In this document: positions 9,337-33,878 of the stretch, piece by piece | How positions within the stretch are numbered: the first letter of the stretch is position 1 | Layout: every line of letters begins with the position of its first letter | NCBI GenBank assembly: GCA_963805085.1 | Contig: CAWDTA010000001.1 | Span: 64,001 to 128,000, forward strand | Source: an uncultured Veillonellaceae bacterium | GTDB lineage: Bacteria; Bacillota; Negativicutes; JARBTT01 | Reading direction: 5' to 3' | Length of the DNA stretch: 64,000 nt | Position numbers and translations under genes: made by a program | Notes under the pieces: model-generated | What the model saw: only the letters and a program-made list of their open reading frames with translations | Database searches by the model: none | Told to the model about the DNA's origin: nothing

Positions 9337-9391
9337 AAATTTTTGCTTTAAGTTATTTTGGTTATACAATGAAAGAATAGGGGGATGTTTT

Positions 9392-10018: not shown

Positions 10019-10425
10019 AACTTCGTAATTTAAGGACGAATCGGAGTCCTAAATTAATGATTATTCCGATGATTGACATTATCTTTTTTCTGTTGGTGTT
10101 TTTTATGATGAGTACGCTCTATATGATCGAGCAACATACTATTCCCATTCACTTGCCTTATGCGACTACACAAAAGATACAAACAGAAAGCAGTATTTCC
10201 ATTACTGTATTGCCAAGTGGAAAAATCCTATTTGAAAATGAAGAAGTAGCTTTAGCCACATTTGGACAGCGGGCAAAAATCGAATTGAGTAAAAATAAAG
10301 ACATTGCCTTTGTGCTAAGAGCAGATCAACAAACAGAATATGGCAAAGTAGTAGCCACATTAGATGAATTAAAATTAGCCGGTGTTAGTAAGATCGCCAT
10401 TGCCACAGAGCGAAAGGATCGATAG
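10015..10425 (+). CDS. exbD: Biopolymer transporter ExbD
   Basis: IPMIDIIFFLLVFFM, LRAD...YG. Confidence 0.92.
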   Translation: MKLRNLRTNRSPKLMIIPMIDIIFFLLVFFMMSTLYMIEQHTIPIHLPYATTQKIQTESSISITVLPSGKILFENEEVALATFGQRAKIELSKNKDIAFVLRADQQTEYGKVVATLDELKLAGVSKIAIATERKDR

Positions 10426-10428
10426 ACA

Positions 10429-11136
10429 ATGCTTGAAAGATTACGCTGGCAAAAAGCGACTTGTATTTCATTCTTAGCGCATGGTGTTTTTTTGCTTTTC
10501 ATTTTTTATATGACGAATTTTGTTTTTGCAGATCAAAAAAGTGAAGAGTATACAGAGGTTGTTTTGGTTAAAGATGAACAAGAATTAGAACATCCAGTAG
10601 TGAAGTCTGAACTAGAACAGCAAATGAGTGATACTTCAATGATAGGGCAGCAAAAGCAACAAGAGCAAAGTAAAGTGATAGAACCTTCATTGCAAACTGC
10701 AGATGGCACAGCGAAGGTAGCGGCGGCAATTGGTGGGGATATTGCTATACAAGCAGTAGGAACTGGTAATGGAAAGGGTTCGGCAAGCAGAGATAACGGT
10801 AGTGGGAATAATAGCGAGGGAAAGGCGGGCAATGGCACCGCCTCAGCGGTAGATCAAAGTAGCCCAGCTAAACGTATAACAGCGACAAAACCAAACTACC
10901 CTGAACGCGATAGACGGCAAAATAGAGAAGGGACAGTAACACTTGGCTTTACTGTTTTAGCTGATGGCGAAGTTAGCAATGTTGAAATTTTAAGCTCTGA
11001 TTGTAGTGAGGCTATGAATCAAGCGGCTATTCATTGTGTAGAAGAGTGGCAATATACACCAGCGCGAGATTCTACTGGACAGGCTATAGCGTATTATAAA
11101 AAAGCAAAAGTAACGTTCGATCTTGAAAATCAATAA
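10429..11136 (+). CDS. tonB: Energy transducer TonB
   Basis: N-terminal TM with SxxxH, Gly/Ser-rich linker, PNYP...EGTV TonB_C domain. Confidence 0.88.
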   Translation: MLERLRWQKATCISFLAHGVFLLFIFYMTNFVFADQKSEEYTEVVLVKDEQELEHPVVKSELEQQMSDTSMIGQQKQQEQSKVIEPSLQTADGTAKVAAAIGGDIAIQAVGTGNGKGSASRDNGSGNNSEGKAGNGTASAVDQSSPAKRITATKPNYPERDRRQNREGTVTLGFTVLADGEVSNVEILSSDCSEAMNQAAIHCVEEWQYTPARDSTGQAIAYYKKAKVTFDLENQ

Positions 11137-11147
11137 ATTAGATTAGG

Positions 11148-12113
11148 ATGTCGATAATGTTAGAACTTGTAAATTTGTCGAATTACTGTATGGATACAGA
11201 ACAACTCATTGATAATAAAAAAGAAAACCTAGAAAAATTTTTAAAAGATAATCAACTAGATGGCATTGAAATGATGTTTTGCCAGCCGTGGGACAAGTCA
11301 TTACATGAGGAAAAATTCATCCAAGGAGTACACTTAAATTTTTGTCCGAGTTGGTTAGAGTTTTGGCGTGGTGATTTAAAAAGCGTTGAAGAACAATTGG
11401 GCAGCCGAGAAGCTATTGTTCAATGTTATGGCGGCTTAACCAGAAAAGACTGGTTAGAGAGCTACCGAGAAAACATTGTAAATGCAAGACAGACAAATGC
11501 CAAATATTTTGTATTCCACGTCAGTCATGCGCGTACGAATGAAGTTTTTGATTGGGAATTTCGCGCGAGTAGTGAAGAGGTCATTGATGCTACGATTCAA
11601 CTGGTAAATGAATTAGCTCCAGAGATACCGGAAGATATGATGTTGTTGTTCGAAAATCTCTGGTGGCCTGGCTTAACCTTATTAGATAAACGATTAGCTA
11701 AAAAATTAATCAATAATGTCAATCATAACAATGTTGGGATTATGCTTGATACAGGTCATCTGATGAATACGAATCAACAGTTAAAGAACCAAGAAGAAGC
11801 TGTTGATTATGTGATAAATATAGTAGAAAATTTAGGAAAATATCGTAAGTATATTAAGGGTGTGCATCTACATTATTCATTATCAGGTGAATATGTTTTA
11901 AATAGTATAAAAAAAGCTAGTTGCAAAAAAACAACAAGTGGTGAGATTATGGAACATATCCTTAAAATTGACGAACATTTGCCGTTTACAACACCAAAAG
12001 TTAAACGTATTATTGAATATATTCAACCAGAAATTTTAGTACATGAATTTATGCAAAGTACACGGGAAGATTGGCAAAACAAACTTAACATGCAAAAGCA
12101 AGCATTGAAGTGA
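11148..12113 (+). CDS. Xylose-isomerase-like/AP-endonuclease-2 TIM-barrel metalloprotein
   Basis: VFHVSH, FENLWWPG, LDTGH, VHLH, DEH, VHE metal-ligand pattern. Confidence 0.75.
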   Translation: MSIMLELVNLSNYCMDTEQLIDNKKENLEKFLKDNQLDGIEMMFCQPWDKSLHEEKFIQGVHLNFCPSWLEFWRGDLKSVEEQLGSREAIVQCYGGLTRKDWLESYRENIVNARQTNAKYFVFHVSHARTNEVFDWEFRASSEEVIDATIQLVNELAPEIPEDMMLLFENLWWPGLTLLDKRLAKKLINNVNHNNVGIMLDTGHLMNTNQQLKNQEEAVDYVINIVENLGKYRKYIKGVHLHYSLSGEYVLNSIKKASCKKTTSGEIMEHILKIDEHLPFTTPKVKRIIEYIQPEILVHEFMQSTREDWQNKLNMQKQALK

Positions 12114-12122
12114 GGCTAAGAC

Positions 12123-13055
12123 ATGGTAAAACGTAGTATTCTATGGATTCTTATAGTATTAGTGAGTGGACTACTTAGTGGCTGTAACATGGATACGCCC
12201 AGAGAAAAAACAACAGCTGCTTATGAAGTCGTTGATAGTCAAGGTACAGTAATAAAGCTGGACAAAAAGCCACAACATATCGTTTCGCTTACCTTATGTA
12301 GTGATGAGATTTTGTTATCATTAATAGATAAAAATCGTCTTGCATCTTGCACATCGCGAGCTACAGATCGTGGTATCTCTAATGTAGCTGAGCAAGCACA
12401 GGATGTACCAAAGTTAAGTAGTAAAAGTATTGAAGCCATTATTGCATTGCAGCCAGATCTCGTGATTGCCGCAGATTGGCTGCCTGTAGAATTAATTGAA
12501 AGCTTAAGAGAAGTGGGACTGAACGTATATGCTTATAAGACACCAAGTACAATCACTGAGGTAGAATCTTTAGTTGAAGAATTTAGTAAAGTCGTAGGTG
12601 AGACAGAAAAAGGGATAGCTATTGTCAAAGAAATGGATGAAGTACTAACGAAAGTACAAGATGACGTAAAGCAAATTCTTCAAGACAAACGCAAAGTTGT
12701 TATGGCACTGTCCTTTATGGGGTGTTATGGTGGTAAAGGCAGTATACTGGATGACATTGATAAAAACGCTGGGGTTATCAACGGTGCGGTTCTTGCGGGG
12801 TTAGGAAAAAATGATACGCTAGCTAAAGAACAAATGGTTGCCATCAATCCTGATGTTATTATGGTGCCAACTTGGGATTATGAAGGTAAAGACACAGAGA
12901 AGTTTAAACAAGATATATTGAACGATCCAGCACTATCTACGATCAAAGCCGTTAAAAATAAACGACTTATTCAAGTCGCTGATAAATATACATATTGTAC
13001 GTCACAATATGTCGTATATGGCGTAAGAGATTTAGCGAAAGCAGTGTATAAGTAA
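12123..13055 (+). CDS. Second BtuF-family substrate-binding lipoprotein
   Basis: Lipobox LSGC; paralogue of 3994..4938 (shared NGA..AGL, INPD...PTW, Y.YC.SQY). Confidence 0.85.
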   Translation: MVKRSILWILIVLVSGLLSGCNMDTPREKTTAAYEVVDSQGTVIKLDKKPQHIVSLTLCSDEILLSLIDKNRLASCTSRATDRGISNVAEQAQDVPKLSSKSIEAIIALQPDLVIAADWLPVELIESLREVGLNVYAYKTPSTITEVESLVEEFSKVVGETEKGIAIVKEMDEVLTKVQDDVKQILQDKRKVVMALSFMGCYGGKGSILDDIDKNAGVINGAVLAGLGKNDTLAKEQMVAINPDVIMVPTWDYEGKDTEKFKQDILNDPALSTIKAVKNKRLIQVADKYTYCTSQYVVYGVRDLAKAVYK

Positions 13056-18643: not shown

Positions 18644-19279
18644 TTAGCTTGGCAACTGGTGGAATGCCAATACTATTAAAAAGATACCTGATAATGCAGT
18701 AGTATATTTACCTAATTGCTCAGAGGCATATTTTTGTCCCCAATAGTACCCCATGCCGATTGTAAGGAAACTGATAATAGCTACAAAAGTCGCTATTAGT
18801 AAAGGGGGAAGACCAGTGGTACCAGCATCGAAGCCACCAGCTATTGCGTTGATTGAGAGGGCAACTCCAAGCAAGAAAGCTTCCCAAGGGCAGATGTCTT
18901 TGGAATCATCAATATCAACTTTTTCAGGATTGTTTAGTATTTCGGCAGGTCCGATATAGAGTCGTGTACCAAACAGTTGTAAATCCATTATGGATTGTTT
19001 CATTTTTATAGCGGCTATAACAGGCTGAACAAAAACCCATAGTCCAACGGAGAAAAGCAAAGTAGCACCGATAATACTAGCAATATTGGAGGATAAGTAT
19101 AGGCTTATGGTTTTACCAATTTGCGCGGATAGCCATGTAGTAATGAAAGAGATTACGGCTATGATCGTATTTGCCGTATGAGAAATTTTAATTTTTTGCA
19201 TTCCATATGCGATACCGACACCTAGATTATCAAGGTTTGCAGCAATCGCAATAAAAATCGCTAAAGCAATAATTTGCAT
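18644..19279 (-). CDS. ytaF: Sporulation membrane protein YtaF (MntP family), copy 1
   Basis: NLDNLGVGIAYG..KI, PEKVDIDDS..I..WEA.LLG.ALSINA; start after GGGAGG, 211 aa. Confidence 0.85.
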   Translation of the reverse strand: MQIIALAIFIAIAANLDNLGVGIAYGMQKIKISHTANTIIAVISFITTWLSAQIGKTISLYLSSNIASIIGATLLFSVGLWVFVQPVIAAIKMKQSIMDLQLFGTRLYIGPAEILNNPEKVDIDDSKDICPWEAFLLGVALSINAIAGGFDAGTTGLPPLLIATFVAIISFLTIGMGYYWGQKYASEQLGKYTTALSGIFLIVLAFHQLPS

Positions 19280-19312
19280 CAATATTTTATCCTCCCTTTT
19301 AATTTTACAAAC

Positions 19313-19339
19313 TATAGTATGGTTTTTTAGAAGTAAGGT
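19313..19339 (-). promoter_or_regulatory. Sigma-K/E-like promoter of ytaF copy 1
   Basis: AC-N16-CATACTATA. Confidence 0.5.
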
Positions 19340-19508
19340 TACGCAAATTTTGACCAAAGTTTATATTGTAGTTTCTTCCAACCAATATAAATTGAAAAAA
19401 TATATAATTTAAAGTTAACATAAAATTAACATGTACTTAACTTTTCTTTTAAAATACTGGTGTATACTAAAAACAAGGAAAAAATAATGTACAGGAGATA
19501 GAAATGAT

Positions 19509-20282
19509 ATGGCGATTTTAGCAGAACCATTTATTCGCCCATTTTTACAGAGTACCGAAATTGTTGAGACGAAAACTGTATCTAAACAAATTCATGAATT
19601 TGTGAATGATAATCAAGAAGCTGTTCAAGAAGAGTTGCTTGCTGCTCAAATAGAAACTTGCAAAATGAAAGTCAGTCGACTTGTAGAAAAACATATCAGT
19701 GGTTGTAATCTCAATTCTCAAGTATATACTGCACTTTTACTTTCCGAAAAATGCGATTACAATGGCTTAATCAATTCGATGATTACGAATATCAATATAG
19801 ATGGTTTATCAAAGGCAGTAAACAAATTGGTGTTTATGGAAATGGAAAATTATTTTGATGTTTCTATTTCAATGCAGGAACAATTTGTGATTTCTACACA
19901 GAAACTTCTTCCGCCTGTATACGTCAGTCAAGTGTTACAGGAATATGTAAATACCTTACGGGTTACCAAAGTTATGGGGCGAGCAGTAAATAAAGTTTGT
20001 CACAAAGGTCTGGCGAAAATGAATCTGCCAGAGGTTGCAAAAAAATTGACCGATAAAATTGAGCTTGGCTCAGTCTTGATGGGCATTTTTGACTGTCATC
20101 CAGAAAAGCAGAAGAAAAAATCGTATCAACAGATGAACTCGTGCATTAGTGGAATAATTAAAAATTTTAAATTTCAAATAAAAATCCAGCTTGATGAAGA
20201 GATCGTGCAAAGGTTTTATCAGCTTTATGATGAACTAGAAGAAGAAATGGATGAGACGTTAGAAACAAGATTATATGTATAA
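19509..20282 (+). CDS. Hypothetical helical protein (257 aa)
   Basis: Long ORF, RBS AGGAG, terminator downstream; no family recognised. Confidence 0.75.
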   Translation: MAILAEPFIRPFLQSTEIVETKTVSKQIHEFVNDNQEAVQEELLAAQIETCKMKVSRLVEKHISGCNLNSQVYTALLLSEKCDYNGLINSMITNINIDGLSKAVNKLVFMEMENYFDVSISMQEQFVISTQKLLPPVYVSQVLQEYVNTLRVTKVMGRAVNKVCHKGLAKMNLPEVAKKLTDKIELGSVLMGIFDCHPEKQKKKSYQQMNSCISGIIKNFKFQIKIQLDEEIVQRFYQLYDELEEEMDETLETRLYV

Positions 20283-20287
20283 GGTTA

Positions 20288-20323
20288 AAAAGCGGTGTGA
20301 TTATGTCATATCGTTTTTTTTTT
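20288..20323 (+). terminator. Intrinsic terminator
   Basis: aaagcggtgtga/tcatatcgttt stem plus T run. Confidence 0.65.
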
Positions 20324-20347: not shown

Positions 20348-20376
20348 GCATAAGATGACTGATTTTGGGAAAATTA
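20348..20376 (+). promoter_or_regulatory. Sigma-F/G-like promoter of the ATPase cluster
   Basis: GCATA-N14-GGGAAAATTA versus GYATA-N15-GGnnAnAHTR. Confidence 0.4.
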
Positions 20377-20425
20377 TTTTTATTCAACGTTAATGTGAAT
20401 ATACGACTAGAAAGGAAAGGTTACC

Positions 20426-21088
20426 ATGCCAAATATTGAATCAAAGGCAGGACAAAAAGAAGAACAGCAAAACTCATCAAGAAACCAGAATGAACAGGAA
20501 AACTTTTCAAGAAATCAGAATGAAGAGCGTAGCCGCGGTCAGTGTATGAGGGAACGAATCTCAAAAACGGTCAATCGAGAATCAGCTGAAGGATTAGACC
20601 AAATTTTTGAGGCTAAGTTGGCCGCTGTTCATACTTATGAAAACAAATTAACATCGGTAACTGATCCGTATGCTCGAAAAGTCCTTCAGGATATGATCAA
20701 TCAAGAACGCAGAGAATTAATGAATCTTACGGAGCTTGCCGATATTGTTGATCAAAGCCCAGATATGGGGCGATTTACCCGTACGCGTCGCCAAATGGGA
20801 CATCAGCTTAAAATGAAAACAGGACATGATACGACGTTTTGGCTTGGAGCAGCTGCATTGACGGTACTCTTGATGCCTGGTTTGAGAGAACAACTTCGGC
20901 CCCTGACAGTTAAGACTACGCAGGGGATCATGAGCTTATCTGAACAGATACAGGGCTTGTTTAGCGGTGTCCGCGAAGATTTAGAGGATATAGTCAGTCA
21001 AGCCCAATTTGAGAAATTCAAGGACTCAATTGATGGTGCAATTGAAGAAACAATACCAGATCCAAATGGTGGGCCAATACATGAATAA
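20426..21088 (+). CDS. Ferritin/rubrerythrin-like helical hairpin fused to a DUF5132-like membrane segment
   Basis: E..AAV..Y.....TDP.AR.VLQ.M..QE; FWLGAAALTVLLMP..R..LRP..VK...G......REDLEDIVSQA. Confidence 0.6.
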   Translation: MPNIESKAGQKEEQQNSSRNQNEQENFSRNQNEERSRGQCMRERISKTVNRESAEGLDQIFEAKLAAVHTYENKLTSVTDPYARKVLQDMINQERRELMNLTELADIVDQSPDMGRFTRTRRQMGHQLKMKTGHDTTFWLGAAALTVLLMPGLREQLRPLTVKTTQGIMSLSEQIQGLFSGVREDLEDIVSQAQFEKFKDSIDGAIEETIPDPNGGPIHE

Positions 21089-21101
21089 AGGAGAAAAAAG
21101 T

Positions 21102-21335
21102 ATGGAAGATATAAGAATCTTGCAGGAAAAGGTTTCGACGATCAAGCAGGAATTAAGAAATGCTGTAGACTTAAGCCTTGAAATACGAGCACAGTCATCC
21201 GAGTCAAAAGAAGAGGTGATTAAAATTTGGGAAATTTTATTGAAAGATTTATTTGGCTATATTAAGCAGCGTAGTAAGGAGGCAAAAGACAATTTGCTTT
21301 CTGGTGTTTCATGGGCACGCTTAAAGTTATTTTAA
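21102..21335 (+). CDS. Hypothetical 77-aa helical protein
   Basis: RBS AAAGGAG before ATG 21102; lies between the ferritin-like gene and the ATPase. Confidence 0.7.
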   Translation: MEDIRILQEKVSTIKQELRNAVDLSLEIRAQSSESKEEVIKIWEILLKDLFGYIKQRSKEAKDNLLSGVSWARLKLF

Positions 21336-21424
21336 ATAAACAGCAAGGAAGAGTCTCCTTGCTATGCTCTTTTTAGTTACCGTCTAAAGTTGAATTAACG
21401 GTTTTGGTAAAAGGGGGATAAAGG

Positions 21425-24400
21425 TTGGAAACAGTGGATGCTACAGGAAAATATAGACTCATACCAGGTCGTTTGCGAATTGAAGTGGATGGTTTGCGCA
21501 GAAATTCTATATTGGCAAAGCGACTAAAAGATCAGCTTAGTCGCGTAAAAGGAATCAGTGAAGTTAGAGCCAATCCACTCACTGGGCGCATTTTGATACT
21601 TTTTGATTATAAAGTTATCGATTTTCCTCAGATAAAGAATGAAATAAATACAGTGGTAAATCAGTATAAAAAAGTTAAACAATTTTACGCTGAAAAAGTG
21701 CTTGTAAATCAAATTGCGGCAACCATTGCTGCCGTTCCAGCTGCGCAGGAAAATTCCAATTCGGGTTTGTATGCGCTTGCCACAGGCGGTGTATTAGCGG
21801 CTATTATTGCAAAACGAATGGTAGTTGGCAAATCACCGCTAGCATCATCACAGCACATTTTTAATTTAACGGCGCTAACAACGATTGTTTCTGGGTATCC
21901 TTTATTTCGCAGTGGCTTACAGGGATTGATACGAGATAAGCGCATCAATCATGATCTGATTATATTTATGGCCTCATTAGTATTGCTAGCGATGAGGGAA
22001 AGCTTTGTCGGTTTGTCCATCTTATGGGTTGTGCATTTAACCAATCTTTTTCAATTTATGGCACAGTCTAAATCCCGTGCCCGAATCCATACAATCATGC
22101 AGCAAAAACAGCATGATTTGTTTAAGCTAGAAAATGACCGTAGGCAGGAAATAAAGGCATATGATATCAAAGAGGGTGATATCCTTGTTCTTCATTCTGG
22201 AGAACGAGTACCTGTTGAAGGCAAAGTCATTGCAGGAAAGGCAGGAATAAATTGTGCTGCTGTAACTGGTGATAGCTTACCTTATTTGGCTTCAGAAGGA
22301 GATATCATAAGTGCTGGTTCGCTAATAGAAACAGGTTCACTACAGATCAGGGTGTTAGATGTAAGCATGACTCCTTTTGTACCACAGGCATATGATGCTA
22401 GTAAGTATGAAGAAAATTGGCATAGTAGTGATCGTTATGTGAATAAAATCATGTGGTGGAGTTTGACGGCAGCAGGGCTCATATTCTTCTTTACTCGGGA
22501 TGTCTCTCGAAGTATTGCTGTACTGCTAGCTGGGTCGCCAGCAGCTATTTCCTTAGCGAGAAATTCAGCGGTGGGGGCAGCTATCGCGCAAGCGACTAGG
22601 CAAAATATCTATGTAAAAGAACCGCGGGCTTTAGAAGCTGCCGGAGAAATAGATACAGTAATTTTAGATAAAACAGGGACCTTGACTGAAGCAGTGCCAC
22701 ATATTGTGGATATCATTGCCTGTGATATGATGAGTGAAAATGATGTTTTGACATTGGCGGCAGCAGCTGGGCAGAAGGAATATCATCCATATAGCAGGGT
22801 ATTGGTGATGGAGACGCAACGAAGAGGTATTAAATTGCCGGAGGCAGTCAGCCAGACGTCTCATGGTATGGGAGTATGCGCAAAAATTGCCGATAAAGAT
22901 GTTGTCGTAGGTAATCGGGCGCTTATGCTACGCGAGCAAATTCAGCTAAGCAGAGTGAGGGCTCAAGCGGCTAGAATGGAGCTCAATGGTAATACCGTCA
23001 CTTATGTCGCTGTAAATAAAAGACTTTGTGGACTAATTGCCGTAAAGGATAAAGTGAAAGAAGCCAGTTTTGAAAGCGTGGCTGCCTTACGATGTATAGG
23101 AATTGAAAATATTGCTTTATTATCAGGAGATTCATCTCCCGCTGCTGATCGTGTTGCAGCAACCCTTGATATTCCATGTAAATATGGGGGGCTGTTGCCA
23201 AATCAAAAAGCAAAAATGATACAAGAGCTAAAAGAGCAGAAATATAAAGTGATTATGGTTGGCGATGGGATTAATGATTCACAAGCATTGGCGATTAGTG
23301 ATGTTGGCATTGCCATGGGAAAAATAGGCGTAAGCCCTACCATCAGTCAGGCTGATATTGTGATAGGGGATGACGATCCACGTAAAATAGCCATGACAGT
23401 AGTTTTAGGCAAACAGCTTAATGAAGTCGTCAAACAGAACACTGCTTTGGCAGCTGGGTTAAATATTATTGGAATTGCTTTAGCCGCAGCACGACTTATT
23501 TCACCTTTGACAGCAGGATTACTGGTTAATATAAGCACACTTGGAGTGGTCTTAAATTCAGGGCGCCTCTTTAAGTCTAAAAAATCTAAAAAAGATATTG
23601 TGGCTTCAAGTAGGTTGGATTTACAGTGCTTTGCCGCACGACAAATTACACCTGAGACTACCAGCCAAAGCGATATAAAAGCGAATTTAGAGACAAAAAA
23701 ATGGCACGGAATGAGCCAAGAAGCGGTTTGTGAAGCATTGGATACTTCGGAAAAATTCGGGATCAGCGAGCAGGAAGCTGGCAGGCGGCGTTTAATCTAT
23801 GGTCACAACAAGTTAACTGCGCGGGAAAAACCTTCTTTTTGGCGACAATTACTAGATCAATTCAAAGATTTTATGGTACAGGTTTTAATGGGGGCTGCAA
23901 CCTTAAGTTTCGTGCTAGGAAAACGAAGGGATGCTATGCTGACCATAGGTATTGTTACCGCTAATGCTTTTCTTGGGGTTGCTCAAGAACGAAAGGCGGG
24001 AAAATCTTTAGAAGTTTTACAGGAATTGGCTGCACCGCAGGCTAGAGTCATTCGTGCAGGACGGACAACAAAAATCAATGCTGCAGCCTTGGTTCCTGGT
24101 GATGTGATTGTATTGGAAGCTGGTGACCGAGTGCCTGCTGATGCTAGATTATTAACAGGCGTTCATTTTGAAGTTGAGGAAGCTTCCTTAACAGGGGAGA
24201 CTATGCCTGTTAAAAAACAGTGGTTAAAAAGTGATGAAATTGAAGTTTCACTAGGAGATCGGAAAAATATGGCATTTATGGGAACAACAGTCACCAAAGG
24301 GCGGGCTATGGCAGTGGTAGTTGCTACGGGAATGACCACTGAAATGGGCAAGATTGCATCCTTGATTGCTCAGCACAAGGAAGAAGCAACGCCACTGCAA

Positions 24401-26449
24401 CGGCGTCTTGAAGAATTAGGGAAATACCTAGTGTATGGTTGTTTAGGCGTTTCTGGACTCGTATTTTGTGTAGGAATGCTGCGTGGTGAGCAATTGATTA
24501 ATATGCTGCAGACAGCGGCTAGTTTGGCTGTAGCAGCGATACCGGAGGGGCTGTCTGCTATTGTTCTTATTGCCTTGGCAATGGGAGTCCAAAGAATGAG
24601 TAAACGTAATATTATTGTTAGCAAACTTTCTTCTATTGAGACACTAGGTTCGGCTACGGTTATTTGTTCGGATAAGACTGGGACACTTACACAAAATCAA
24701 ATGACTGTACGTGAAGTGTTTTCGCTAGGTGGACAATGGGGAGTTTCTGGAGAAGGGTACAATCCCAAAGGGCAGTTTAGTGAGAACAATCAGAATGTGG
24801 AGCCAGATAAGTTGCTAAAAAAGATTGCAAGCATTGCAGCTTTATGCAATAATGCAAAACTTATGAAAGCGCAGCAGAATGTTAATGGTAAAGTAGTGCC
24901 ACTAAAACCATGTAGGGAAGAAAAATGGACGATTGATGGCGATCCTACTGAGGGAGCTCTCCTCACATTAGCTGCTAAAGCTGGGCTTAATCTCGAACAG
25001 TTTACGCAAACGAATTGTCGTGAGATTGAATATCCATTTGAGTCGGAACGGTGCATGATGTCCGTTGTGTGTACCGATGAAAATCAAGAGTCTTCACTGT
25101 ATTCAAAGGGCGCTCCAGATAAAATTATCAGTCTTTGCACGCATTATACAGATGGGGAAAATATTTATCCGCTTGATGATGTATTGCGCCAAAAAGTTGA
25201 ACAGGCTAACGATGCTATGGCCTTAAAAGCGCTAAGAGTGCTGGCTTGTGCCTATCGTCCGATGGATGTTAGTGAGAATAAAGAAGATGAAAGTACAGTG
25301 GAAGGAAAATTAGTTTTTTGTGGACTGGTGGGAATGATTGATCCGCCTCGCCCGGAGGTTCCAACAGCTATTGAAAAGTGTCGGCGGGCTGGCGTGAAAG
25401 TGGTTATGATTACGGGAGATCATCCTAGTACGGCTAAGGCTATCGGTAAGGAATTGGGATTGATTGCTGATAACAGCGGAATCGTAACTGGTGGGCAAAT
25501 AGATAAAATGAGCGATGAAGAACTTATTCAGGCAGTAGAAGCCGTTCGTATATTTGCTAGGACATCACCTCAACAGAAACTGCGTATCGTAAAAGCATTT
25601 AAAAGCAGAGGTGAAGTGGTTGCAATGACTGGAGATGGCGTTAACGATGCGCCTGCCGTTAAGGCCGCAGATATTGGCATCGCTATGGGGGTAACTGGAA
25701 CAGATGTTACAAAACAAGCTGCCTGTATGACTTTAGCCGATGACAATTTCGCAACAATAGTGAGGGCGATGGAAGAGGGACGGTCAATCTATGCTAATAT
25801 ACGCAAAGCAATCCGTTATCTGCTCGCCACCAATATTGGCGAAGTCGTTTTAATGTTTTTGGCGGCAGTGATAGGGATGCCGTTGCCACTGATACCAATA
25901 CAACTCTTATGGATTAATCTTGTTGGGGATGGTCTTCCAGCAATTGCGCTAGTCAATGACCCTCCTCCGGCTGATGTAATGGAACAAGCTCCACAGTCAA
26001 GTAGTGATAGTGTTTTTGCGAATGGCCTAGGAAAGAAAGTTCTCAGCAGAGGCTTGATTATCGGTATGGGGAGTCTTTTCTTATATGCTTGGAAGCTGCG
26101 TGCTAGTGGTAGCATAATGCTTGCGCGTACTTTAACGCTGGCACAACTAGCGATCAGTCAGTTTATTCACATTTTTGACTGCCGCATAGAAAAAGGCATG
26201 GGTGGAATAAAACAATTTGCAAGTAATAAGTGGCTGATAGCAGCTGTTGCTCTATCGATGTCAATGGTTGCTATAGTTATTCAATATCCAGTATTACAGC
26301 CTGTGTTTGGTACTGTAGCTTTGACCGCTTGGGAGTGGCTAATGGCGCTCATTGTGGCGATGATAACCTCGGCAGTAGATTTTCTGGTCGTAAGAAAAAT
26401 TGAACAAAAAAATTTGATACAGCAACCAGTAAAGGTGTTAACTAATTAA
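21425..26449 (+). CDS. Tandem P-type ATPase: HMA_2 + P1B-like half fused to P2A (Ca/Mn-type) half
   Basis: PGRLRI...V.ANPLTGRILI; DKTGTLT at residues ~415 and ~1083; two GDGxND; IPEGL, TGET, NLVGDGLPA. Confidence 0.9.
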   Translation: METVDATGKYRLIPGRLRIEVDGLRRNSILAKRLKDQLSRVKGISEVRANPLTGRILILFDYKVIDFPQIKNEINTVVNQYKKVKQFYAEKVLVNQIAATIAAVPAAQENSNSGLYALATGGVLAAIIAKRMVVGKSPLASSQHIFNLTALTTIVSGYPLFRSGLQGLIRDKRINHDLIIFMASLVLLAMRESFVGLSILWVVHLTNLFQFMAQSKSRARIHTIMQQKQHDLFKLENDRRQEIKAYDIKEGDILVLHSGERVPVEGKVIAGKAGINCAAVTGDSLPYLASEGDIISAGSLIETGSLQIRVLDVSMTPFVPQAYDASKYEENWHSSDRYVNKIMWWSLTAAGLIFFFTRDVSRSIAVLLAGSPAAISLARNSAVGAAIAQATRQNIYVKEPRALEAAGEIDTVILDKTGTLTEAVPHIVDIIACDMMSENDVLTLAAAAGQKEYHPYSRVLVMETQRRGIKLPEAVSQTSHGMGVCAKIADKDVVVGNRALMLREQIQLSRVRAQAARMELNGNTVTYVAVNKRLCGLIAVKDKVKEASFESVAALRCIGIENIALLSGDSSPAADRVAATLDIPCKYGGLLPNQKAKMIQELKEQKYKVIMVGDGINDSQALAISDVGIAMGKIGVSPTISQADIVIGDDDPRKIAMTVVLGKQLNEVVKQNTALAAGLNIIGIALAAARLISPLTAGLLVNISTLGVVLNSGRLFKSKKSKKDIVASSRLDLQCFAARQITPETTSQSDIKANLETKKWHGMSQEAVCEALDTSEKFGISEQEAGRRRLIYGHNKLTAREKPSFWRQLLDQFKDFMVQVLMGAATLSFVLGKRRDAMLTIGIVTANAFLGVAQERKAGKSLEVLQELAAPQARVIRAGRTTKINAAALVPGDVIVLEAGDRVPADARLLTGVHFEVEEASLTGETMPVKKQWLKSDEIEVSLGDRKNMAFMGTTVTKGRAMAVVVATGMTTEMGKIASLIAQHKEEATPLQRRLEELGKYLVYGCLGVSGLVFCVGMLRGEQLINMLQTAASLAVAAIPEGLSAIVLIALAMGVQRMSKRNIIVSKLSSIETLGSATVICSDKTGTLTQNQMTVREVFSLGGQWGVSGEGYNPKGQFSENNQNVEPDKLLKKIASIAALCNNAKLMKAQQNVNGKVVPLKPCREEKWTIDGDPTEGALLTLAAKAGLNLEQFTQTNCREIEYPFESERCMMSVVCTDENQESSLYSKGAPDKIISLCTHYTDGENIYPLDDVLRQKVEQANDAMALKALRVLACAYRPMDVSENKEDESTVEGKLVFCGLVGMIDPPRPEVPTAIEKCRRAGVKVVMITGDHPSTAKAIGKELGLIADNSGIVTGGQIDKMSDEELIQAVEAVRIFARTSPQQKLRIVKAFKSRGEVVAMTGDGVNDAPAVKAADIGIAMGVTGTDVTKQAACMTLADDNFATIVRAMEEGRSIYANIRKAIRYLLATNIGEVVLMFLAAVIGMPLPLIPIQLLWINLVGDGLPAIALVNDPPPADVMEQAPQSSSDSVFANGLGKKVLSRGLIIGMGSLFLYAWKLRASGSIMLARTLTLAQLAISQFIHIFDCRIEKGMGGIKQFASNKWLIAAVALSMSMVAIVIQYPVLQPVFGTVALTAWEWLMALIVAMITSAVDFLVVRKIEQKNLIQQPVKVLTN

Positions 26450-26499
26450 AAAACATGAAGGTGAGCTAAAATTAATATTAGCTTTACCTTCATGTTTTT
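26448..26499 (+). terminator. Intrinsic terminator after ATPase
   Basis: aaaaacatgaaggtgagctaa/ttagctttaccttcatgttttt. Confidence 0.7.
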
Positions 26500-26538
26500 C
26501 ATTTCTTTGCAAATACTAATAGCGAGGAGGTGATTTTT

Positions 26539-26691
26539 ATGTATTGGTTACTTGCTCGTCCAGCAATTGGTTGGGGTGCTTTTCTATTGGTGCATGCAAT
26601 TGGGATCCCACTTGTTTATGGTATGGGAAAAAATTGCGGTATGAAAAGGACAAATCAGTTGGAAGGAGGTAAAGAAATAGCAGTAGATTAA
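26539..26691 (+). CDS. Unannotated 50-aa membrane protein
   Basis: Strong RBS GAGGAGGTGA; MYWLLARPAIGWGAFLLVHAIGIPLVYGMGKNCGMKRTNQLEGGKEIAVD*; hairpin follows. Confidence 0.75.
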   Translation: MYWLLARPAIGWGAFLLVHAIGIPLVYGMGKNCGMKRTNQLEGGKEIAVD

Positions 26692-26694
26692 GCA

Positions 26695-26730
26695 AATAGG
26701 GCTTCCACCTTAACTGGTGAAAGCCCTATT
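26695..26730. terminator. Hairpin between convergent genes
   Basis: aatagggctt...aagccctatt. Confidence 0.6.
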
Positions 26731-26737
26731 CGGATTG

Positions 26738-27310
26738 TTATTTGACTGGTTTTTTATGGGCGGCGCGGCGACGGGGCAAATCATCAGTTTCCAACTTATC
26801 ATCTATCAACTGGAGTGATGATTCTTCTAAATGGTCACTTGTTTGGGATTCGTCAACAGCATCGACATAGTTAGTAGCATCATTGCTATCATACGTTTCA
26901 ACAGCAAGACCAGCTTTAGCTTCATCCACAACATCCTTGAAGTTGTTACGCAATGATTTGGCTTTGTCTGATAAGGCTAAGGCACCAGCAGCGGTTGCTA
27001 CAGCTACACGACGACCTTGTTTTTTTGCCGTATGCTTTAAACAATCCATTGTTCCGGCTATTGCTTCCTGTGGCGTATTGTCAATATCTCTAGCTTCGGA
27101 AACGATGTCTGCAGTACTTTCTTTTATTTGGACTCCTAGTTCTTTTACACTATCTGCAAGTGCTAAGGCACCTCGGGTAGTTAAGACAGCTGCACTGCGG
27201 AGACCTCGTCTAACTGGTGGGAAAGCGACGGCGATTGCGGCTCCAGTTGCGATAAGAGCAACTGGTGAGCTACTTTCAATAACTCTTGAGCCTAAACGCA
27301 TAATATTCAT
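26738..27310 (-). CDS. DUF5132-like protein with internally duplicated motif and acidic tail
   Basis: TM (ALIATGAAIAVAFPP) then R.AAV....GALAL.D..K.L...K...DIV.EA twice. Confidence 0.7.
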   Translation of the reverse strand: MNIMRLGSRVIESSSPVALIATGAAIAVAFPPVRRGLRSAAVLTTRGALALADSVKELGVQIKESTADIVSEARDIDNTPQEAIAGTMDCLKHTAKKQGRRVAVATAAGALALSDKAKSLRNNFKDVVDEAKAGLAVETYDSNDATNYVDAVDESQTSDHLEESSLQLIDDKLETDDLPRRRAAHKKPVK

Positions 27311-27561
27311 ATTTCATCCCTCCTTTGCTCCTTTTTAGTAATTCCCAGTAAATATTATGGTTATGTACGCAAATTTAATGAAAATTATTTATAAAAAAAT
27401 GGATTTACTGGAACACATTAAGGAAACGACAATGAAGGAGTGCTATGAAGATTGACAACACCCCCATAATTAAGAAAATGAAATGATTTTATCAAGCAAT
27501 TAATTATTTGGAGGTAGTACTCATCAATTATGATGTTAGTGAAGTTAGAGTTAAAAAATAG

Positions 27562-28197
27562 CTACCCTAGTAGCTGATGGAGCCCGATTAGCATTAATAA
27601 CGTACCAGACACTAGAGTAGCGTATTTGCCTAGCTGCTCAGCGGCATATTTTTCACCAACATAATTACCTGTATAAATAGTGATAAGGCTGAATATACCT
27701 ATAAGAGCAGCCTCTAATAATGGGGATATGCCGATTGCTCCTGCATCAAATCCACCGGCTAAGGCATTTATGGAAAGCGCAGTGCCTAGGATAATTGCTT
27801 CCCAGTGTCCAATATTCTGTGAATTATCCATATCAGCTCTTTCTGGATAATTTAAAATTTCTGTAGGTCCAATATAGATTCTCCCCCCTAATAGCTGTAA
27901 ATCAATAATTGGCTGATTGGTCTTTATTGCGGTAATGATTGGTTGTGTAAAGATCCAGGCTCCTACCCCGAAGAGCAAGATAGCTCCGATAATACTAGTT
28001 ACTTCTGGACTCAAATATACGATGATTGCTTTACCAATTTCACCAGATAACCATGTGGCAACTAAAGATATTGCGGATATAATGAAATTAGAAATATGAG
28101 AAATTCTGATTTTTCGAATCCCATAGGCAATACCTACCCCGAGATTATCCAAATTGGCTGCTATAGCTATTAAGATACTGATGAAAAAACTATTCAT
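27562..28197 (-). CDS. ytaF: Sporulation membrane protein YtaF (MntP family), copy 2
   Basis: 211 aa, colinear paralogue of 18644..19279. Confidence 0.85.
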   Translation of the reverse strand: MNSFFISILIAIAANLDNLGVGIAYGIRKIRISHISNFIISAISLVATWLSGEIGKAIIVYLSPEVTSIIGAILLFGVGAWIFTQPIITAIKTNQPIIDLQLLGGRIYIGPTEILNYPERADMDNSQNIGHWEAIILGTALSINALAGGFDAGAIGISPLLEAALIGIFSLITIYTGNYVGEKYAAEQLGKYATLVSGTLLMLIGLHQLLG

Positions 28198-30657: not shown

Positions 30658-30674
30658 AATAACGAACTAAATAA

Positions 30675-30843
30675 TTCTTCGTTAGGTGAGGCTCCTGCAT
30701 TGAACATAGGCCACTGCCCGGAAACGTCGAGAGACGCCAATGGGTAGAACAGGTATGACCGGATTAAGGTTTTACATAAGGTGGCTGAGTAACTGATTGT
30801 TAATTCTACGTCATGCAGTGTCAAAGCTCGTACGAGTGGGGAA
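30675..30843 (+). ncRNA. M-box (ykoK) Mg2+ riboswitch
   Basis: TTCGTTAGGTGAGGCTCCT...CTGCCCGGAAACGTCGAGAGACGCCAATGGGTAGAACAGG...AAAGCTCG.ACGAG; upstream of Mg transport genes. Confidence 0.93.
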
Positions 30844-30866
30844 GGTAATATAGTATTTGTATGCTT

Positions 30867-31329: not shown

Positions 31330-32613
31330 ATGAATCAAGTTAAAGTGTTGGGAGAGTTTTACTTTAGCAAATTATTAGGTACACCTGTCTATGATAAAAG
31401 TGGCCGGAATATCGGCAAAATAAGAGATATGGCGGTGCGATGGGAAGGTACTTATCCAAAAATTGTGGGGATTAAACATATAAAGAAAACACATCAATTG
31501 ATTCCCATTGACCAGATTGCGTGTTGTAGTTATAAGGAAGTAAGACTAAAAGAAAATTTTGAAATAGAGAAAACTGCAATTCTTCATGAAAATGATATTT
31601 ACATTAGTAGATGGCTTTTAGATAAGCAAATTATTGATTTAAAAGGCTCTAAACTTGTGCGGGTAAATGATATTACATTGTCTTGGGTAGTGCAGGAAAA
31701 CCTTGAAAGTATGGTATTGGTTGCTGTTGATATTGGAATAAGAGGTCTTTTTCGTCGTCTAGGATTGGAGTTTTTAGTCAAGGGCTATCAAAATAACTTG
31801 TTGGGTTTACAATATATTAAACCATTAGAAAGCTGGAATTCCTTTCTTCAACTGAATCGCGAGAAGCAACAGGTTAGTGAATTGCATCCTGCGGATATTG
31901 CGGATTTACTAGAGGAAATGGATTACAAAACACGTGCTGGTTTTATTGAGAAGCTAGATGACCAACAAGCTGTGGATGCTTTGATTGAAATGGACTTGGA
32001 TTCACAAGTTGAAATTATTGAACAAATGGATGAACAGCGGGCATCTGATTTATTAGAAGAAATGCCACCAGATGAGGCGGCAGATATTCTAGTGGAAATG
32101 ACTGCAGAAAAATCAGAGGGATTACTCAACCTGATGGAAGTGGATGATGCCGAGGAAGTGCGCGAACTTATGCAGTATGAAGAAGGTACTGCCGGGGCAT
32201 TGATGACAACAGAATTTATTGCCTTTTCTGCAGATCTTACGCCTGAAGAGGTTATCAATCAGCTCAGAGAGCTGGCACCAGAAGCAGAAACTATTTATTA
32301 TTTATATGTGGTGGATCAGGAAGAACATTTGCAGGGGGTTCTGTCTTTACGTGAACTCATTGTGGCATCGCCAAAGGCAACATTGCGTCAATTGATGCAT
32401 ACGAAACTGAGAACAGTGCATCCGGAAGAAGATCATCAACGTGTTGCAGAGGTTATCAATAAATATGGATTGCTGGCCGTACCTGTAGTTGATGGGCAAG
32501 GGATTATTTTGGGGATTGTCACGGTTGATGATATTGTTGACATTTTAATACCGGAACGTGGCAAAATGGATACATATTCTTGGTTCGCCCTTAGTAAGTG
32601 GGGTGGTAGATGA
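31330..32613 (+). CDS. Soluble MgtE-like protein (PRC barrel + MgtE_N + CBS pair, no TM domain)
   Basis: LHPADIADLLEE, Y.EGTAGALMTTE, GIVTVDDI; ends after the CBS pair. Confidence 0.88.
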   Translation: MNQVKVLGEFYFSKLLGTPVYDKSGRNIGKIRDMAVRWEGTYPKIVGIKHIKKTHQLIPIDQIACCSYKEVRLKENFEIEKTAILHENDIYISRWLLDKQIIDLKGSKLVRVNDITLSWVVQENLESMVLVAVDIGIRGLFRRLGLEFLVKGYQNNLLGLQYIKPLESWNSFLQLNREKQQVSELHPADIADLLEEMDYKTRAGFIEKLDDQQAVDALIEMDLDSQVEIIEQMDEQRASDLLEEMPPDEAADILVEMTAEKSEGLLNLMEVDDAEEVRELMQYEEGTAGALMTTEFIAFSADLTPEEVINQLRELAPEAETIYYLYVVDQEEHLQGVLSLRELIVASPKATLRQLMHTKLRTVHPEEDHQRVAEVINKYGLLAVPVVDGQGIILGIVTVDDIVDILIPERGKMDTYSWFALSKWGGR

Positions 32614-33878
32614 TGAAAAATATGCGTGCTCGTTTAGGTTTATTCTTAGCAGTAATGGGACCAGGTGTTGTTACTGCCTTTGCTGATAATGATGCTGGTG
32701 GTATCGCTACCTATGCTGCTGCTGGTGCAACATATGGGTATGATCTATTATTTACCCTATTGATTAGCACGGTTTGTCTCGCCATTGCGCAAGAAATTTC
32801 TGCGCGGACAGGTGCTGTTACTGGGCGAGGTTTATCCGATTTGATTCGTGAGTCCTTTGGTGTCAAATGGACGTTTTTTGCCATGATTGTATTATTGATT
32901 GCCAATATTGGTACGACAGCATCAGAATTTTCTGGTATTGCTACTAGTTTTGAGATGTTTGGTATCCATAAGATTATCGCAGTACCAATCATGGCCTTTG
33001 TCGTTTGGTGGTCGGTTCTTAAGGGAAATTACTCTCGGATTGAAAAATTGTTTTTTGTGTTGTGTGCCACCTTTTTAAGTTATATTATATCGGGAGTTAT
33101 TATAAATCCGCCTTGGGAGGAAGTGCTATTGGCTTCGGTTACGCCGACCTTTCATAGCGACGCGGATTTTCTCATGATGGCTATTGGTCTTATTGGTACA
33201 ACGATCACGCCTTGGGGGCAGTTTTACGTACAGGCCGCAGTCGTTGATAAAGGCATAACAGCTAAAGACTATAAATATACCTTCTGGGATGTTATGCTTG
33301 GGGCTTTCTTTACTTGGTTAATTGCATTCTTCGTCGTTGTAGCTACGGCAGCTACTCTAAATGCCAATGATATTCAAATTGAAACTGTGAAAGATGCAGC
33401 GATGGCTCTGGAGCCTTTGGCGGGGAAATATGCTAGCATGTTGTTTTCCTTTGGATTGCTCGGAGCCTCTATGCTTGCGGCATTTATTTTGCCACTCAGT
33501 AGTGCTTATGCTGTTTGTGAAGCCTTTGGCTTTGAAAGCGGGGTTAGTAAAAAGCCAAAAGAAGCGCCCATATTTTTTGGAGTCTATACGGTGATTATTT
33601 TGCTCGGGGCAGCGATCGCTCTATGGCCTGGGATATCACTAACTGCAGTTATGTTGGCATCCCAGGTTGTAAATGGAGTGTTGTTACCACCGATTCTGAT
33701 TTTCATGGTACTGATTGCTAGCAATGAATCTATTATGGGTAAGTATAAAAATTCTAACTGGTATAATATTGTCGCATGGGCGTTTACTACCGTATTAATT
33801 GTTTTAACCTTAATGTTGTTGATTTCTACGGTAGCTCCTGAATTCATGAATAGCTTCATGAAATTAATTGGATTATAA
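32610..33878 (+). CDS. Nramp-related Mg2+ transporter (NRMT/NrmT type)
   Basis: ADNDAGGIATY, GTTITPW; under M-box control. Confidence 0.85.
   Translation: MMKNMRARLGLFLAVMGPGVVTAFADNDAGGIATYAAAGATYGYDLLFTLLISTVCLAIAQEISARTGAVTGRGLSDLIRESFGVKWTFFAMIVLLIANIGTTASEFSGIATSFEMFGIHKIIAVPIMAFVVWWSVLKGNYSRIEKLFFVLCATFLSYIISGVIINPPWEEVLLASVTPTFHSDADFLMMAIGLIGTTITPWGQFYVQAAVVDKGITAKDYKYTFWDVMLGAFFTWLIAFFVVVATAATLNANDIQIETVKDAAMALEPLAGKYASMLFSFGLLGASMLAAFILPLSSAYAVCEAFGFESGVSKKPKEAPIFFGVYTVIILLGAAIALWPGISLTAVMLASQVVNGVLLPPILIFMVLIASNESIMGKYKNSNWYNIVAWAFTTVLIVLTLMLLISTVAPEFMNSFMKLIGL

Follow-up and report, generated by a model that had tools for sequence, protein, structure and literature searches.

Within a 64,000-nucleotide (nt) stretch of the genome of an uncultured Veillonellaceae bacterium (the window, to which all coordinates refer), we find a conserved gene cluster whose central product, protein C, joins a P1B-derived ATPase body, headed by an arginine-rich HMA_2/CoBaHMA domain, to a complete P2A-type Ca2+/Mn2+ pump. 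Judging from sequence, the cluster may best be read as a conserved, sporulation-wired membrane module, a forespore cation-pump platform of spore-forming Negativicutes, a reading to which we would give a little less than an even chance. Its design is fez/PacL-like, but it is not a ferrosome, because the motifs that define ferrosome pumps fail and so does the position in the tree. What is new here are the putative forespore-type promoters before A-B-C-D and before E, and a candidate Pho box before U257.

A preliminary description of this stretch had singled out five linked genes, here called A to E. All five open reading frames (ORFs) are present, and U257, the gene located 5′ of A, is a sixth conserved member. 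Position 20348, where the cluster had been taken to begin, is non-coding and constitutes the first base of a conserved promoter-like element. The window's own genome (G000) comprises 4.2 Mb and is 83% complete. The parts of the cluster are as follows:

19415..19441, plus strand: Pho-box-like triple direct repeat, 94 nt before the U257 start codon
19463..19468, plus strand: TATACT, a -10-like hexamer (TATAAT or TATACT in five aligned loci)
19509..20282, plus strand: U257, 257 amino acids (aa), soluble, all-helical, without a named family
20290..20323, plus strand: intrinsic-terminator-like stem-loop and T-run after U257, conserved in five aligned loci
20348..20376, plus strand: forespore-type (sigmaF/sigmaG-like) promoter element GCATA-N14-GGGAAAATTA, 49 nt before the A start
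20426..21088, plus strand: A, 220 aa, with a variable N-terminus, an EncFtn-like hairpin, a hydrophobic helix and an amphipathic helix
21102..21335, plus strand: B, 77 aa, soluble, without a named family (the mechanical ORF runs from 21009)
21342..21363, plus strand: stem-loop and T-rich tail between B and C, attenuator- or terminator-like
21425..26449, plus strand: C, 1674 aa, fused pump
21458..21658, plus strand: HMA_2/CoBaHMA head of C, residues 12-78 (PF19991)
21425..23590, plus strand: P1B-derived body of C, residues 1-722
23699..26449, plus strand: P2A pump half of C, residues 759-1674
26530..26691, plus strand: D, 53 aa from GTG, ~50 aa from the conserved Met, one membrane helix
26738..27310, minus strand: E, 190 aa, with two PacL/DUF1490-like repeats and an acidic C-terminal tail
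27336..27366, minus strand: forespore-type promoter element ACATA-N15-GGGAATTACTA before E

The fused pump and its relatives

A search with the whole of protein C returned 67 protein clusters of 1486-1777 aa, from NCBI, JGI, ENA and Logan sources, which contain both halves. Fused relatives come from Pelorhabdus (79% identity), Propionispora, Sporomusa, Lucifera, Methylomusa and Dendrosporobacter, and distant ones (34-40%) from Desulfotomaculum, Desulfofundulus, Desulfosporosinus and Desulfitobacteriaceae. Of 401 Negativicutes genomes, 22 from nine families, G000 included, encode a protein that matches the P1B body over nearly its full length (E<=2e-143). All but one of these strong matches (21) lie within a stop-free open frame of 1670-1812 aa; an unfused 760-aa form, with no P2A half at the locus, was found in one genome (G140). 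The synteny check that had been proposed shows the cluster to recur in Sporomusales: over 20 fetched loci and the window, 21 in total, U257 is present in 19, A and B in 16 each, D in 15 and E in 20. Neither the fusion nor the cluster can therefore be due to chance, given the 67 fused clusters and the neighbours syntenic in 15-20 of the 21 loci, and the linkage of the five genes is real. D is also kept in a locus without the P2A half (L043). Members of the A family, scanned for in species genomes, occupy 29 loci, 24 of them in Sporomusales (including Pelosinus and Anaerospora) and five in Candidatus Brocadia. Published descriptions of a P1B-P2A fusion did not come to light in open-access text, including a review of P-type ATPases (PMC10654040).

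An assembly or sequencing artefact that joined two adjacent pump genes into one long ORF has practically no chance of being the explanation. Its one point of support comes from Sporomusa loci that show two ORFs, of ~480-545 aa and ~1040 aa. The window frame, however, is uninterrupted, frames of 1670-1812 aa without an internal stop are open in 21 of the genomes, and fused clusters are found in all four sources; we ruled the artefact out on the 67 fused clusters together with the open frames in other genomes. The Sporomusa loci in question (L068 10970-15522, L070 11038-15776 and L075 11023-14148) contain either two overlapping ORFs or the 1040-aa part only, and represent either natural split or truncated forms or frameshifts.

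The C-terminal half had been described as a P2A Ca/Mn-type pump, and so it appears. It matches TIGR01522, the PMR1-type family, over residues 759-1652 with 777.9 bits, just under the equivalog cut-off of 798.3, and it matches Cation_ATPase_N and Cation_ATPase_C as well. All P2A motifs are intact in the window, namely TGET, IPEGL, DKTGT (D1083), GDGVND, NIGEV in membrane helix M5 and NLVGDG in M6. DKTGT, [IV]PEGL, T/SGE and GDGxND are each found in 67/67 fused proteins, and a minority show variation in M5 NxxE and M6 NxxxD. Among solved structures, those of the Listeria Ca2+-ATPase LMCA1 (6zhf, E 1.4e-176) and human SPCA1 (8iwp, E 4e-170) are closest; full-length similarity and motifs alike are those of LMCA1/PMR1-type P2A Ca2+-ATPases, and the predicted transported ion is Ca2+ or Mn2+. 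Among the ORFs of at least 500 aa in G000, the fused C is the only P2-type pump. The other pumps found among them are CopA-like and KdpB, and none is of the D[YF]SC (FezB) type.

At the opposite end, HMA_2 (PF19991) covers residues 12-78 with 45 bits against a cut-off of 30, and no Cys occurs in the first 100 residues, in agreement with the Cys-free HMA_2 head noted earlier. The head carries the R-rich (RxR) motif PGRLRI, and a PG(R/Y)xR-type motif is present in 61 of the 67 fused proteins (PGRxR in 60), the other six having no N-terminus; from the common R-rich signature we infer that HMA_2 and CoBaHMA are probably the same domain. The adjoining body (TIGR01525, residues 177-715) has TGDS for TGES, AGSPAA in transmembrane helix 4 (TM4), DKTGT (D415), YHPY, GDGIND and VNIST in TM6. 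Over the 67 fused proteins, DKTGT is present in 44 and GDGxND in 47, as opposed to a canonical TGE in two and any xGE in nine, the position varying freely between D, N, S, G, K and A. TM4 reads GCPxA in 40, GSPxA in eight and ANP[SR]P in 11, and the window's clade has no Cys there (SPA); TM6 reads [QLAV]N[ILVF]ST, with N and S/T kept and His absent in 67/67. Desulfotomaculum-type members retain the R-rich head and the fusion, with every P1B catalytic motif lost. In P-type pumps, dephosphorylation is driven by the Glu of TGE. Compared with a competent P1B pump, the window protein has no Glu in the TGE loop and no Cys in TM4, and it has DKTGT, HP and GDGIND. Since the catalytic motifs decay across the family, we take the N-terminal half to have been conserved, in all probability, for something other than ATP-driven transport; in the window's lineage the body may still become phosphorylated. 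The term “double ATPase” in the preliminary description is thus an overstatement, because the P1B half is not a second working pump on equal terms with the P2A half.

The same description had also taken the N-terminal half for a FezB-like unit, and we tried and rejected its membership in P1B-6. Grant & Komeili (bioRxiv 10.1101/2020.01.10.902569) specify P1B-6 (FezB) by D[Y/F]SCA in TM4 and HNxxT in TM6, and state that an R-rich N-terminus is not specific to P1B-6. The N-terminal RxR is present in C, and neither of the two membrane motifs is. In a midpoint-rooted FastTree phylogeny of 56 sequences (with P0121-P0240 thinned to one sequence of at least 600 aa per distinct TM4 heptad), the fused bodies constitute a clade of their own (support 0.997) with four unfused forms nested inside, apart from a D[YF]SCA clade (0.999) and from a clade of CPC/HNAST paralogues (0.975), which are described below. 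True D[YF]SCA proteins, such as that from [Ruminococcus] lactaris, are 26% identical.

Small partner proteins and U257

The C-terminus of A and the N-terminus of E have an anchor domain in common, composed of a hydrophobic helix, a Pro/Arg turn and an amphipathic helix. In A, it occupies residues ~137-205 and is of the DUF5132/PacL/FezA-like kind, and in E it is doubled (residues ~16-75 and ~118-150), as is visible in the alignment. A had been described as a ferritin-like/DUF5132-like fusion and E as carrying a doubled DUF5132-like motif: the hairpin and the anchor of A and the doubling in E hold, whereas the family names given to A find weak support and the profile matched by E, weakly, is DUF1490 instead of DUF5132. 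The A protein of the window has no Pfam match at E<=0.1, and at that threshold DUF5132 (PF17195) is absent from both A and E; its sub-threshold NCBIfam matches are EncB_fam (E 8.2e-5) and encapsulin-associated ferritin (E 1.2e-3). The E protein of the window matches DUF1490 with E 0.015 and 15.8 bits, below the cut-off of 28.4. Judged by E-values only and not by curated cut-offs, members of the A family match weakly to DUF5132 (8/16, best E 3.9e-4), the ferritin-like DUF2383 (7/16) and EncFtn-like (2/16) families, and members of the E family, at E<=1, to DUF1490 (PacL; 15/23, best E 8.9e-8), YtxH (eight) and DUF6110 (one), with DUF5132 absent among the families listed. The C-terminus of E is acidic and variable, with no conserved His cluster and no DLHDHDH-like metal-binding motif.

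In the structural model of A, confidence is limited to residues 51-109, which form a two-helix hairpin with a predicted local distance difference test (pLDDT) score of 79-97. Its top Foldseek rows are EncC, EncFtn and EncB, all weak (E 0.1-0.4), and the comparison with EncB gives TMt 0.82 and a root-mean-square deviation (rmsd) of 1.9 Å over 63 columns. A thus appears to have a ferritin-like fold, but its predicted metal site is not the usual ferritin one, because in the profile alignment with PDB sequences the Glu of helix 1 is replaced by R/S/H and ExxH reads E94-x-x-E/Q97.

Potential counterparts of the anchor domain are found in Candidatus Brocadia pituitae, where small proteins of 112 and 133 aa, with the GxxxG-bearing segment GALGVLAAIGIG, adjoin two stand-alone HMA_2 proteins. 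In hhalign comparisons with these small proteins, the A family scores 92.9% (E 3.6e-7) and the E family 78% (E 1.7e-5). The Brocadia pump (700 aa; PQRMRI, VDYSCS, TGEP, HNATT) is of the P1B-6 type. This Brocadia cluster (L078 8312-17008) is itself a fez-like cluster in an anammox bacterium, in which the pump is followed by ApbE/FMN_bind, thioredoxin and an encapsulin shell gene.

B could be assigned to no Pfam or NCBIfam family, and Atlas places it in hypothetical Bacillota clusters only; its alignment has 59% mean column identity, and the C-terminus is strongly conserved (GYIKQRSKExKDNLLSGISWTRLKLF). D was correctly described as a Gly-rich membrane protein of 50 aa, but it does not contain a strict GxxxG; a strict conserved GxxxG is absent from the alignments of A, D and E alike. 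Residues W, P, WG, H, P, VY and GK are invariant in D, and a Cys is near-invariant. A complex prediction for the P1B body with D scored 0.00 against a mark of 0.32, without controls, and speaks neither for nor against an interaction.

U257 belongs to a family with 154 representatives at E<=1e-3 among 1.84 billion proteins, and no Pfam family was consistently matched in the 56 members scanned. Its model is of high quality (pLDDT 91.4, predicted template modelling score 0.81). In a structural comparison (VIA), 10 of the top 15 rows were dynamin-family stalks, with Z values of 6.6-10.0, such as helical bundles attain through a similar arrangement of their helices: the best were MxB (Z 10.0, rmsd 4.6 Å, 166 aligned), IniA (9.3) and Drp1 (8.7), and further dynamin-superfamily rows included dynamin, BDLP, OPA1, LeoA and Mgm1. 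Foldseek gave no match at E<=0.001, and no GTPase domain is present; Atlas leads (GTPase, mitofusin, DLP_helical; 0.85-0.91) are of low recognition. An unfused paralogue (745-763 aa; R-rich head, TGEP, CPC, HNAST), i.e. a CtpC-like or “P1B6-like” pump, is also encoded within ~10 kb of the fused gene in five of the 20 related loci:

L037 2013-4304, minus strand
L039 1547-3796, minus strand
L041 5207-7444, plus strand
L043 2930-5206, minus strand
L046 15674-17902, plus strand

All five paralogues are accompanied by a separate, shorter U257-like protein (208-232 aa), so that HMA_2-headed P1B pumps seem, in general, to be partnered by members of the U257 family.

Promoters and genomic neighbourhood

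The elements preceding A and E are similar to each other and fit the sigmaF consensus, GYATA-N15-GGnnAnAHTR. Upstream of A orthologues, the element was found in 8/16 loci by a strict regular expression and in 9/16 by a looser one, and by eye in 16/16, as GYATA-N14/15-(GG)nnAnAnTA; upstream of E orthologues, the regular expression matched 15 of 18 regions. For the looser expression at A as for E, the background is 0.016 per 150 nt, estimated from the loci themselves. In G000 as a whole, 43 matches were obtained, 16 of them with a ribosome-binding site and an ORF, including the genes for yyaC (TIGR02841, 210 bits vs the cut-off of 84.9) and fin (E 2e-16, under its cut-off). A like element precedes gpr in three relatives, where it was read by eye, as its spacer register lies outside the first regular expression. 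In relatives, spoIIR lies directly 3′ of a sigma-factor gene and could not be used as a promoter control. The promoters of A-B-C-D and of E thus look forespore-specific, and the link to sporulation put forward in the preliminary description is now backed by conserved promoter elements. All five related cluster-bearing genomes tested have spoIVA, and G000 has gpr, yyaC, fin and two ytaF genes.

Different control is apparent at U257. Its repeat, TTAACA-N5-TTAACA-N5-TTAAC, occurs once in the window and in 0/100 shuffles, and we presume it to be a PhoP box, as it fits the Bacillus subtilis consensus (TT(A/T/C)ACA repeats with 11-bp spacing). A looser pattern has eight matches in the 4.2-Mb genome, one of them 99 nt before a PstS-family gene (TIGR02136, 218.9 bits vs the cut-off of 206.6) and another 97 nt before a Tat-signal purple-acid-phosphatase-like gene. 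The repeat is found upstream of U257 orthologues in 7/18 loci, plus L054 and L068. With three repeats, and with pstS preceded by the same pattern, U257 has the features expected of a Pho regulon member. The conserved terminator following U257 separates this Pho-box-led gene from A-B-C-D. Downstream, a stem-loop after the B stop codon was found in 13/14 loci folded, and may, we suggest, cause A and B to be made in excess over the pump.

Other Pho matches in G000 lie ~100-130 nt before a gene for a 386-aa Tat-signal protein without a family (C3:76907, minus strand), before a 1073-aa CheA-like histidine kinase (two overlapping matches; C4:442680-442691, minus strand) and before an ORF resembling methyl-accepting chemotaxis proteins (MCP-like; C4:350879, plus strand), which are candidate members of the Pho regulon; one further match has no downstream ORF. 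There is also a weak two-repeat Pho-like element, TTAACTCTAACTTCAC, at 27539-27554 on the minus strand, just after the second ytaF and ~240 nt before E, which may be there by chance.

As previously noted, and as library scans and the M-box now show, the cluster is accompanied by Mn/Mg genes and ytaF paralogues, and not by the iron-homeostasis genes that accompany fez clusters: the window contains two ytaF genes, mntH, an MgtE-domain gene, an NRAMP-like gene and an M-box riboswitch. The mapped neighbours are:

18644..19357, minus strand: ytaF paralogue 1 (TIGR02840, 166.3 bits vs cut-off 149.6)
27562..28197, minus strand: ytaF paralogue 2 (TIGR02840, 158.9 bits vs cut-off 149.6)
30671..30847, plus strand: M-box (Mg2+) riboswitch (Rfam, 153.6 bits)

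A ytaF gene adjoins the cluster in 7/20 related loci. In C. perfringens, ytaF is sporulation-specific and is discussed as part of a route for accumulation of calcium dipicolinate (Ca-DPA), according to the relevant section of PMC9332280. The M-box is the only Rfam match, with no family, including the yybP-ykoY Mn riboswitch, found inside the cluster. It precedes a gene pair (31330-33878, plus strand) whose products are an MgtE-domain protein and a divergent protein of NRAMP-like type; such a combination, placed under Mg2+ control, is unusual. Farther away, at 3994-13055 on the plus strand, genes for a TonB-dependent receptor, a BtuCD-like ATP-binding cassette (ABC) transporter, two binding proteins and ExbB/ExbD/TonB make up an outer-membrane uptake system of the corrinoid, heme or siderophore type, as expected in a diderm Firmicute.

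Possible functions and comparison with known systems

If the cluster is indeed a forespore cation-pump platform, its P2A half would be the working pump, and the P1B half with its CoBaHMA head would act in scaffolding or regulation, or at the most cycle slowly. The P1B half, A, D and E would assemble the platform in the forespore membrane, later the spore inner membrane, from where it would export Ca2+ or Mn2+ from the cytoplasm of the forespore or spore, releasing it on the extracytoplasmic side. Tethered ferritin-like domains of A could bind metal at the platform, and the stem-loop after B could serve to keep the scaffold proteins in excess over the pump. To the spore, such export might be of use in limiting free cation during development, in supplying the intermembrane space, or in clearing Ca2+ at germination or outgrowth.

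A number of observations weigh against this reading. Export from the cytoplasm by a P2A pump runs against net Ca2+ accumulation in the spore core, and its direction alone does not explain that accumulation. The window's genus is represented in the sample by just one more genome (G001, 84% complete), which yielded no strong match. In G000, at 83% completeness, spoIVA, spoIIR and a true spo0A were not found; either ~1 Mb that includes these genes is unassembled, or sporulation was lost and the cluster kept. The naming of the sigmaF/sigmaG and PhoP elements rests on Bacillus subtilis consensus sequences, and the in-genome promoter comparisons are few (gpr, yyaC and fin for the former, pstS and the phosphatase for the latter). 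Pfam and NCBIfam matches of A and E are all weak among those examined, with the window copies under curated cut-offs; the usual ferritin ligands are not conserved in A; and the resemblance of U257 to dynamin stalks is of the size noted above for helical bundles in general. Finally, the window P1B body retains DKTGT, HP and GDGIND, and TGD may permit slow turnover, so that it could still pump.

The last point leads to a true double pump, in which ATP would be hydrolysed by both halves and each would carry a different cation in the same direction across one membrane, such as Mn2+ or Fe2+ by way of the [C/S]Px body and Ca2+ by way of the P2A half. It would account for the retention of DKTGT, HP and GDGxND in the window and its Sporomusaceae relatives (19/21 loci), for the TM4 Cys-Pro of 40/67 proteins and for the TM6 N-x-S-T of most, the change from TGE to TGD being conservative; we nonetheless consider it unlikely, as a canonical TGE survives in 2/67 with D, N, S, G, K or A at its variable position, DKTGT is missing in 23/67, Desulfotomaculum-type proteins are devoid of all catalytic motifs, and the window's clade has lost the TM4 Cys. 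Equally modest prospects are given to a fez-derived organelle, i.e. a membrane-bounded store with a lumen loaded with Mn2+, Ca2+ or Fe, possibly in the forespore, which is close to the storage or mineralisation compartment proposed in the preliminary description. Of the fez origin claimed there, the fez/PacL-type design withstands scrutiny, in view of the R-rich head and the hhalign matches to Brocadia, and ferrosome membership does not. An organelle would be consistent with the R-rich HMA_2 head, found in FezB and FezC, and with the make-up of A, ferritin-like with a C-terminal membrane anchor, which parallels the DUF2202-GxxxG protein of fez clusters (both as described by Grant & Komeili). 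It also agrees with the alignment of the partner domain to GxxxG-bearing small proteins beside the DYSCS/HNATT ATPase in Brocadia, with the membrane-remodelling dynamin stalks among the best structural rows of U257 and the concurring Atlas leads, with the Pho box before U257, and with the combination of CoBaHMA, DUF5132 and a Ca2+ transporter around the calcyanin gene of Microcystis (in the portion of 10.1101/2024.07.07.602159 dealing with it). It is opposed by the absence of the P1B-6 motifs and the placement of the body outside the D[YF]SCA clade, by the decay of the body's catalytic motifs, by the lack of a FezB-type ATPase among the G000 ORFs of at least 500 aa, by Mn/Mg instead of iron genes as neighbours and by the non-canonical ferritin ligands of A; moreover, nothing computed points to a lumen or a mineral.

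Phosphate is the main intracellular cation buffer, and the Pho box before U257 would also suit a vegetative PacL-type effluxosome, in which plasma-membrane efflux against excess Ca2+, Mn2+ or Zn2+ is induced at phosphate shortage. Matches to DUF1490 (PacL) in 15/23 E-family members fit this picture, as do the CtpC-like CPC/HNAST paralogues accompanied by a U257-like partner, at most 10 kb away in 5/20 related loci, and PacL1 stabilises and clusters CtpC (bioRxiv 10.1101/2021.10.01.462712). However, the conserved terminator parts the Pho-led U257 from A-B-C-D; the elements before A-B-C-D and before E are of the forespore type, with no Pho repeat; E has no PacL1-type His-rich C-terminal metal motif; and the cluster came up only in families whose tested members have spoIVA, all of which makes an effluxosome rather improbable. 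A bolder proposal, for which we hold out slim hope, is a “spore ferrosome”, a membrane-bounded store of Ca/Mn, perhaps with phosphate, in the forespore, where the pseudo-pump and the PacL/FezA-like proteins would mark and shape the membrane, the dynamin-stalk-like U257 would remodel it, the P2A half would load it, and the hairpins of A would nucleate or guard the metal. It would be the third CoBaHMA-associated biomineral compartment, beside ferrosomes and cyanobacterial carbonate inclusions, and the first organelle of such type tied to sporulation.

The forespore pump platform, if correctly identified, would provide a natural case of a P-type pump kept as a non-catalytic scaffold for another. 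The P1B halves form a decay series, from nearly intact (the window) to fully dead (Desulfotomaculum-type), by which the roles of the CoBaHMA head and the P1B-6-like body become testable apart from transport. The cluster would also link ferrosomes, mycobacterial PacL effluxosomes and the calcyanin neighbourhood through a common toolkit of a CoBaHMA head, a partner with a transmembrane segment plus a long helix, and a cation transporter, with the difference that here, unlike in these separately studied systems, the toolkit carries a Ca2+ pump. For Ca2+/Mn2+ control across forespore membranes, a ytaF-flanked pump platform would offer a concrete handle in diderm spore-formers.

Comparison with known systems shows that fez clusters (FezB, Grant & Komeili) have in common with the present one the R-rich N-terminal head on a P1B pump and small hydrophobic helical partners. 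They differ in TM4, which here is G[C/S]PxA and not D[Y/F]SCA, and in TM6, here xNxST without His; the body described here belongs to a separate clade, is decaying in its catalytic motifs and continues into a P2A pump; in place of DUF2202, the ferritin-like part resembles EncFtn/DUF2383, there is no iron context, and the promoters look forespore-type. In Mycobacterium tuberculosis, PacL1 (DUF1490) stabilises, clusters and scaffolds the P1B6-like pump CtpC, and DUF1490 is described as a relative of DUF6110, a companion of P1B-6 pumps (Boudehen et al.; bioRxiv 10.1101/2021.10.01.462712). The PacL1-CtpC effluxosomes share with our cluster a membrane-anchored helical partner beside an HMA_2-headed pump, and the idea of a scaffolded platform. 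In contrast to PacL1, E has two repeats, an acidic tail and no DLHDHDH-type metal motif, and in A the anchor domain is fused to a ferritin-like hairpin; while CtpC is a working CPC/HN pump, the P1B body here decays, and a true CtpC-like paralogue exists separately in some relatives of the window.

The neighbourhood of calcyanin (ccyA), from cyanobacteria with intracellular amorphous CaCO3, is similar in having CoBaHMA, DUF5132-type proteins with a transmembrane segment plus a long helix, and a Ca2+ transporter; in Microcystis, genes for CoBaHMA proteins, DUF5132 proteins and a Ca2+ transporter surround the calcyanin gene, as reported in the corresponding part of 10.1101/2024.07.07.602159. Here, however, there is no calcyanin/GlyZip protein, a P-type pump takes the place of the Ca2+/H+ exchanger, phylum and regulation are different, and the DUF5132 matches are weak and limited to the A family. 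With the encapsulin-associated ferritin-like proteins (EncFtn Rru_A0973, and EncB and EncC of M. xanthus), A has the confidently modelled two-helix hairpin in common, but at sub-threshold scores, with no encapsulin gene nearby, with the hairpin membrane-tethered, and with ligands R/S/H and ExxE/Q instead of E and ExxH. The C-terminal half of C matches LMCA1 and SPCA/PMR1 over the full length and carries all catalytic and ion-site motifs. Neither these pumps nor YloB of Bacillus subtilis, another bacterial P2A Ca2+-ATPase, reportedly linked to sporulation, have an N-terminal P1B body or a CoBaHMA head, by which C is set apart from all of them.

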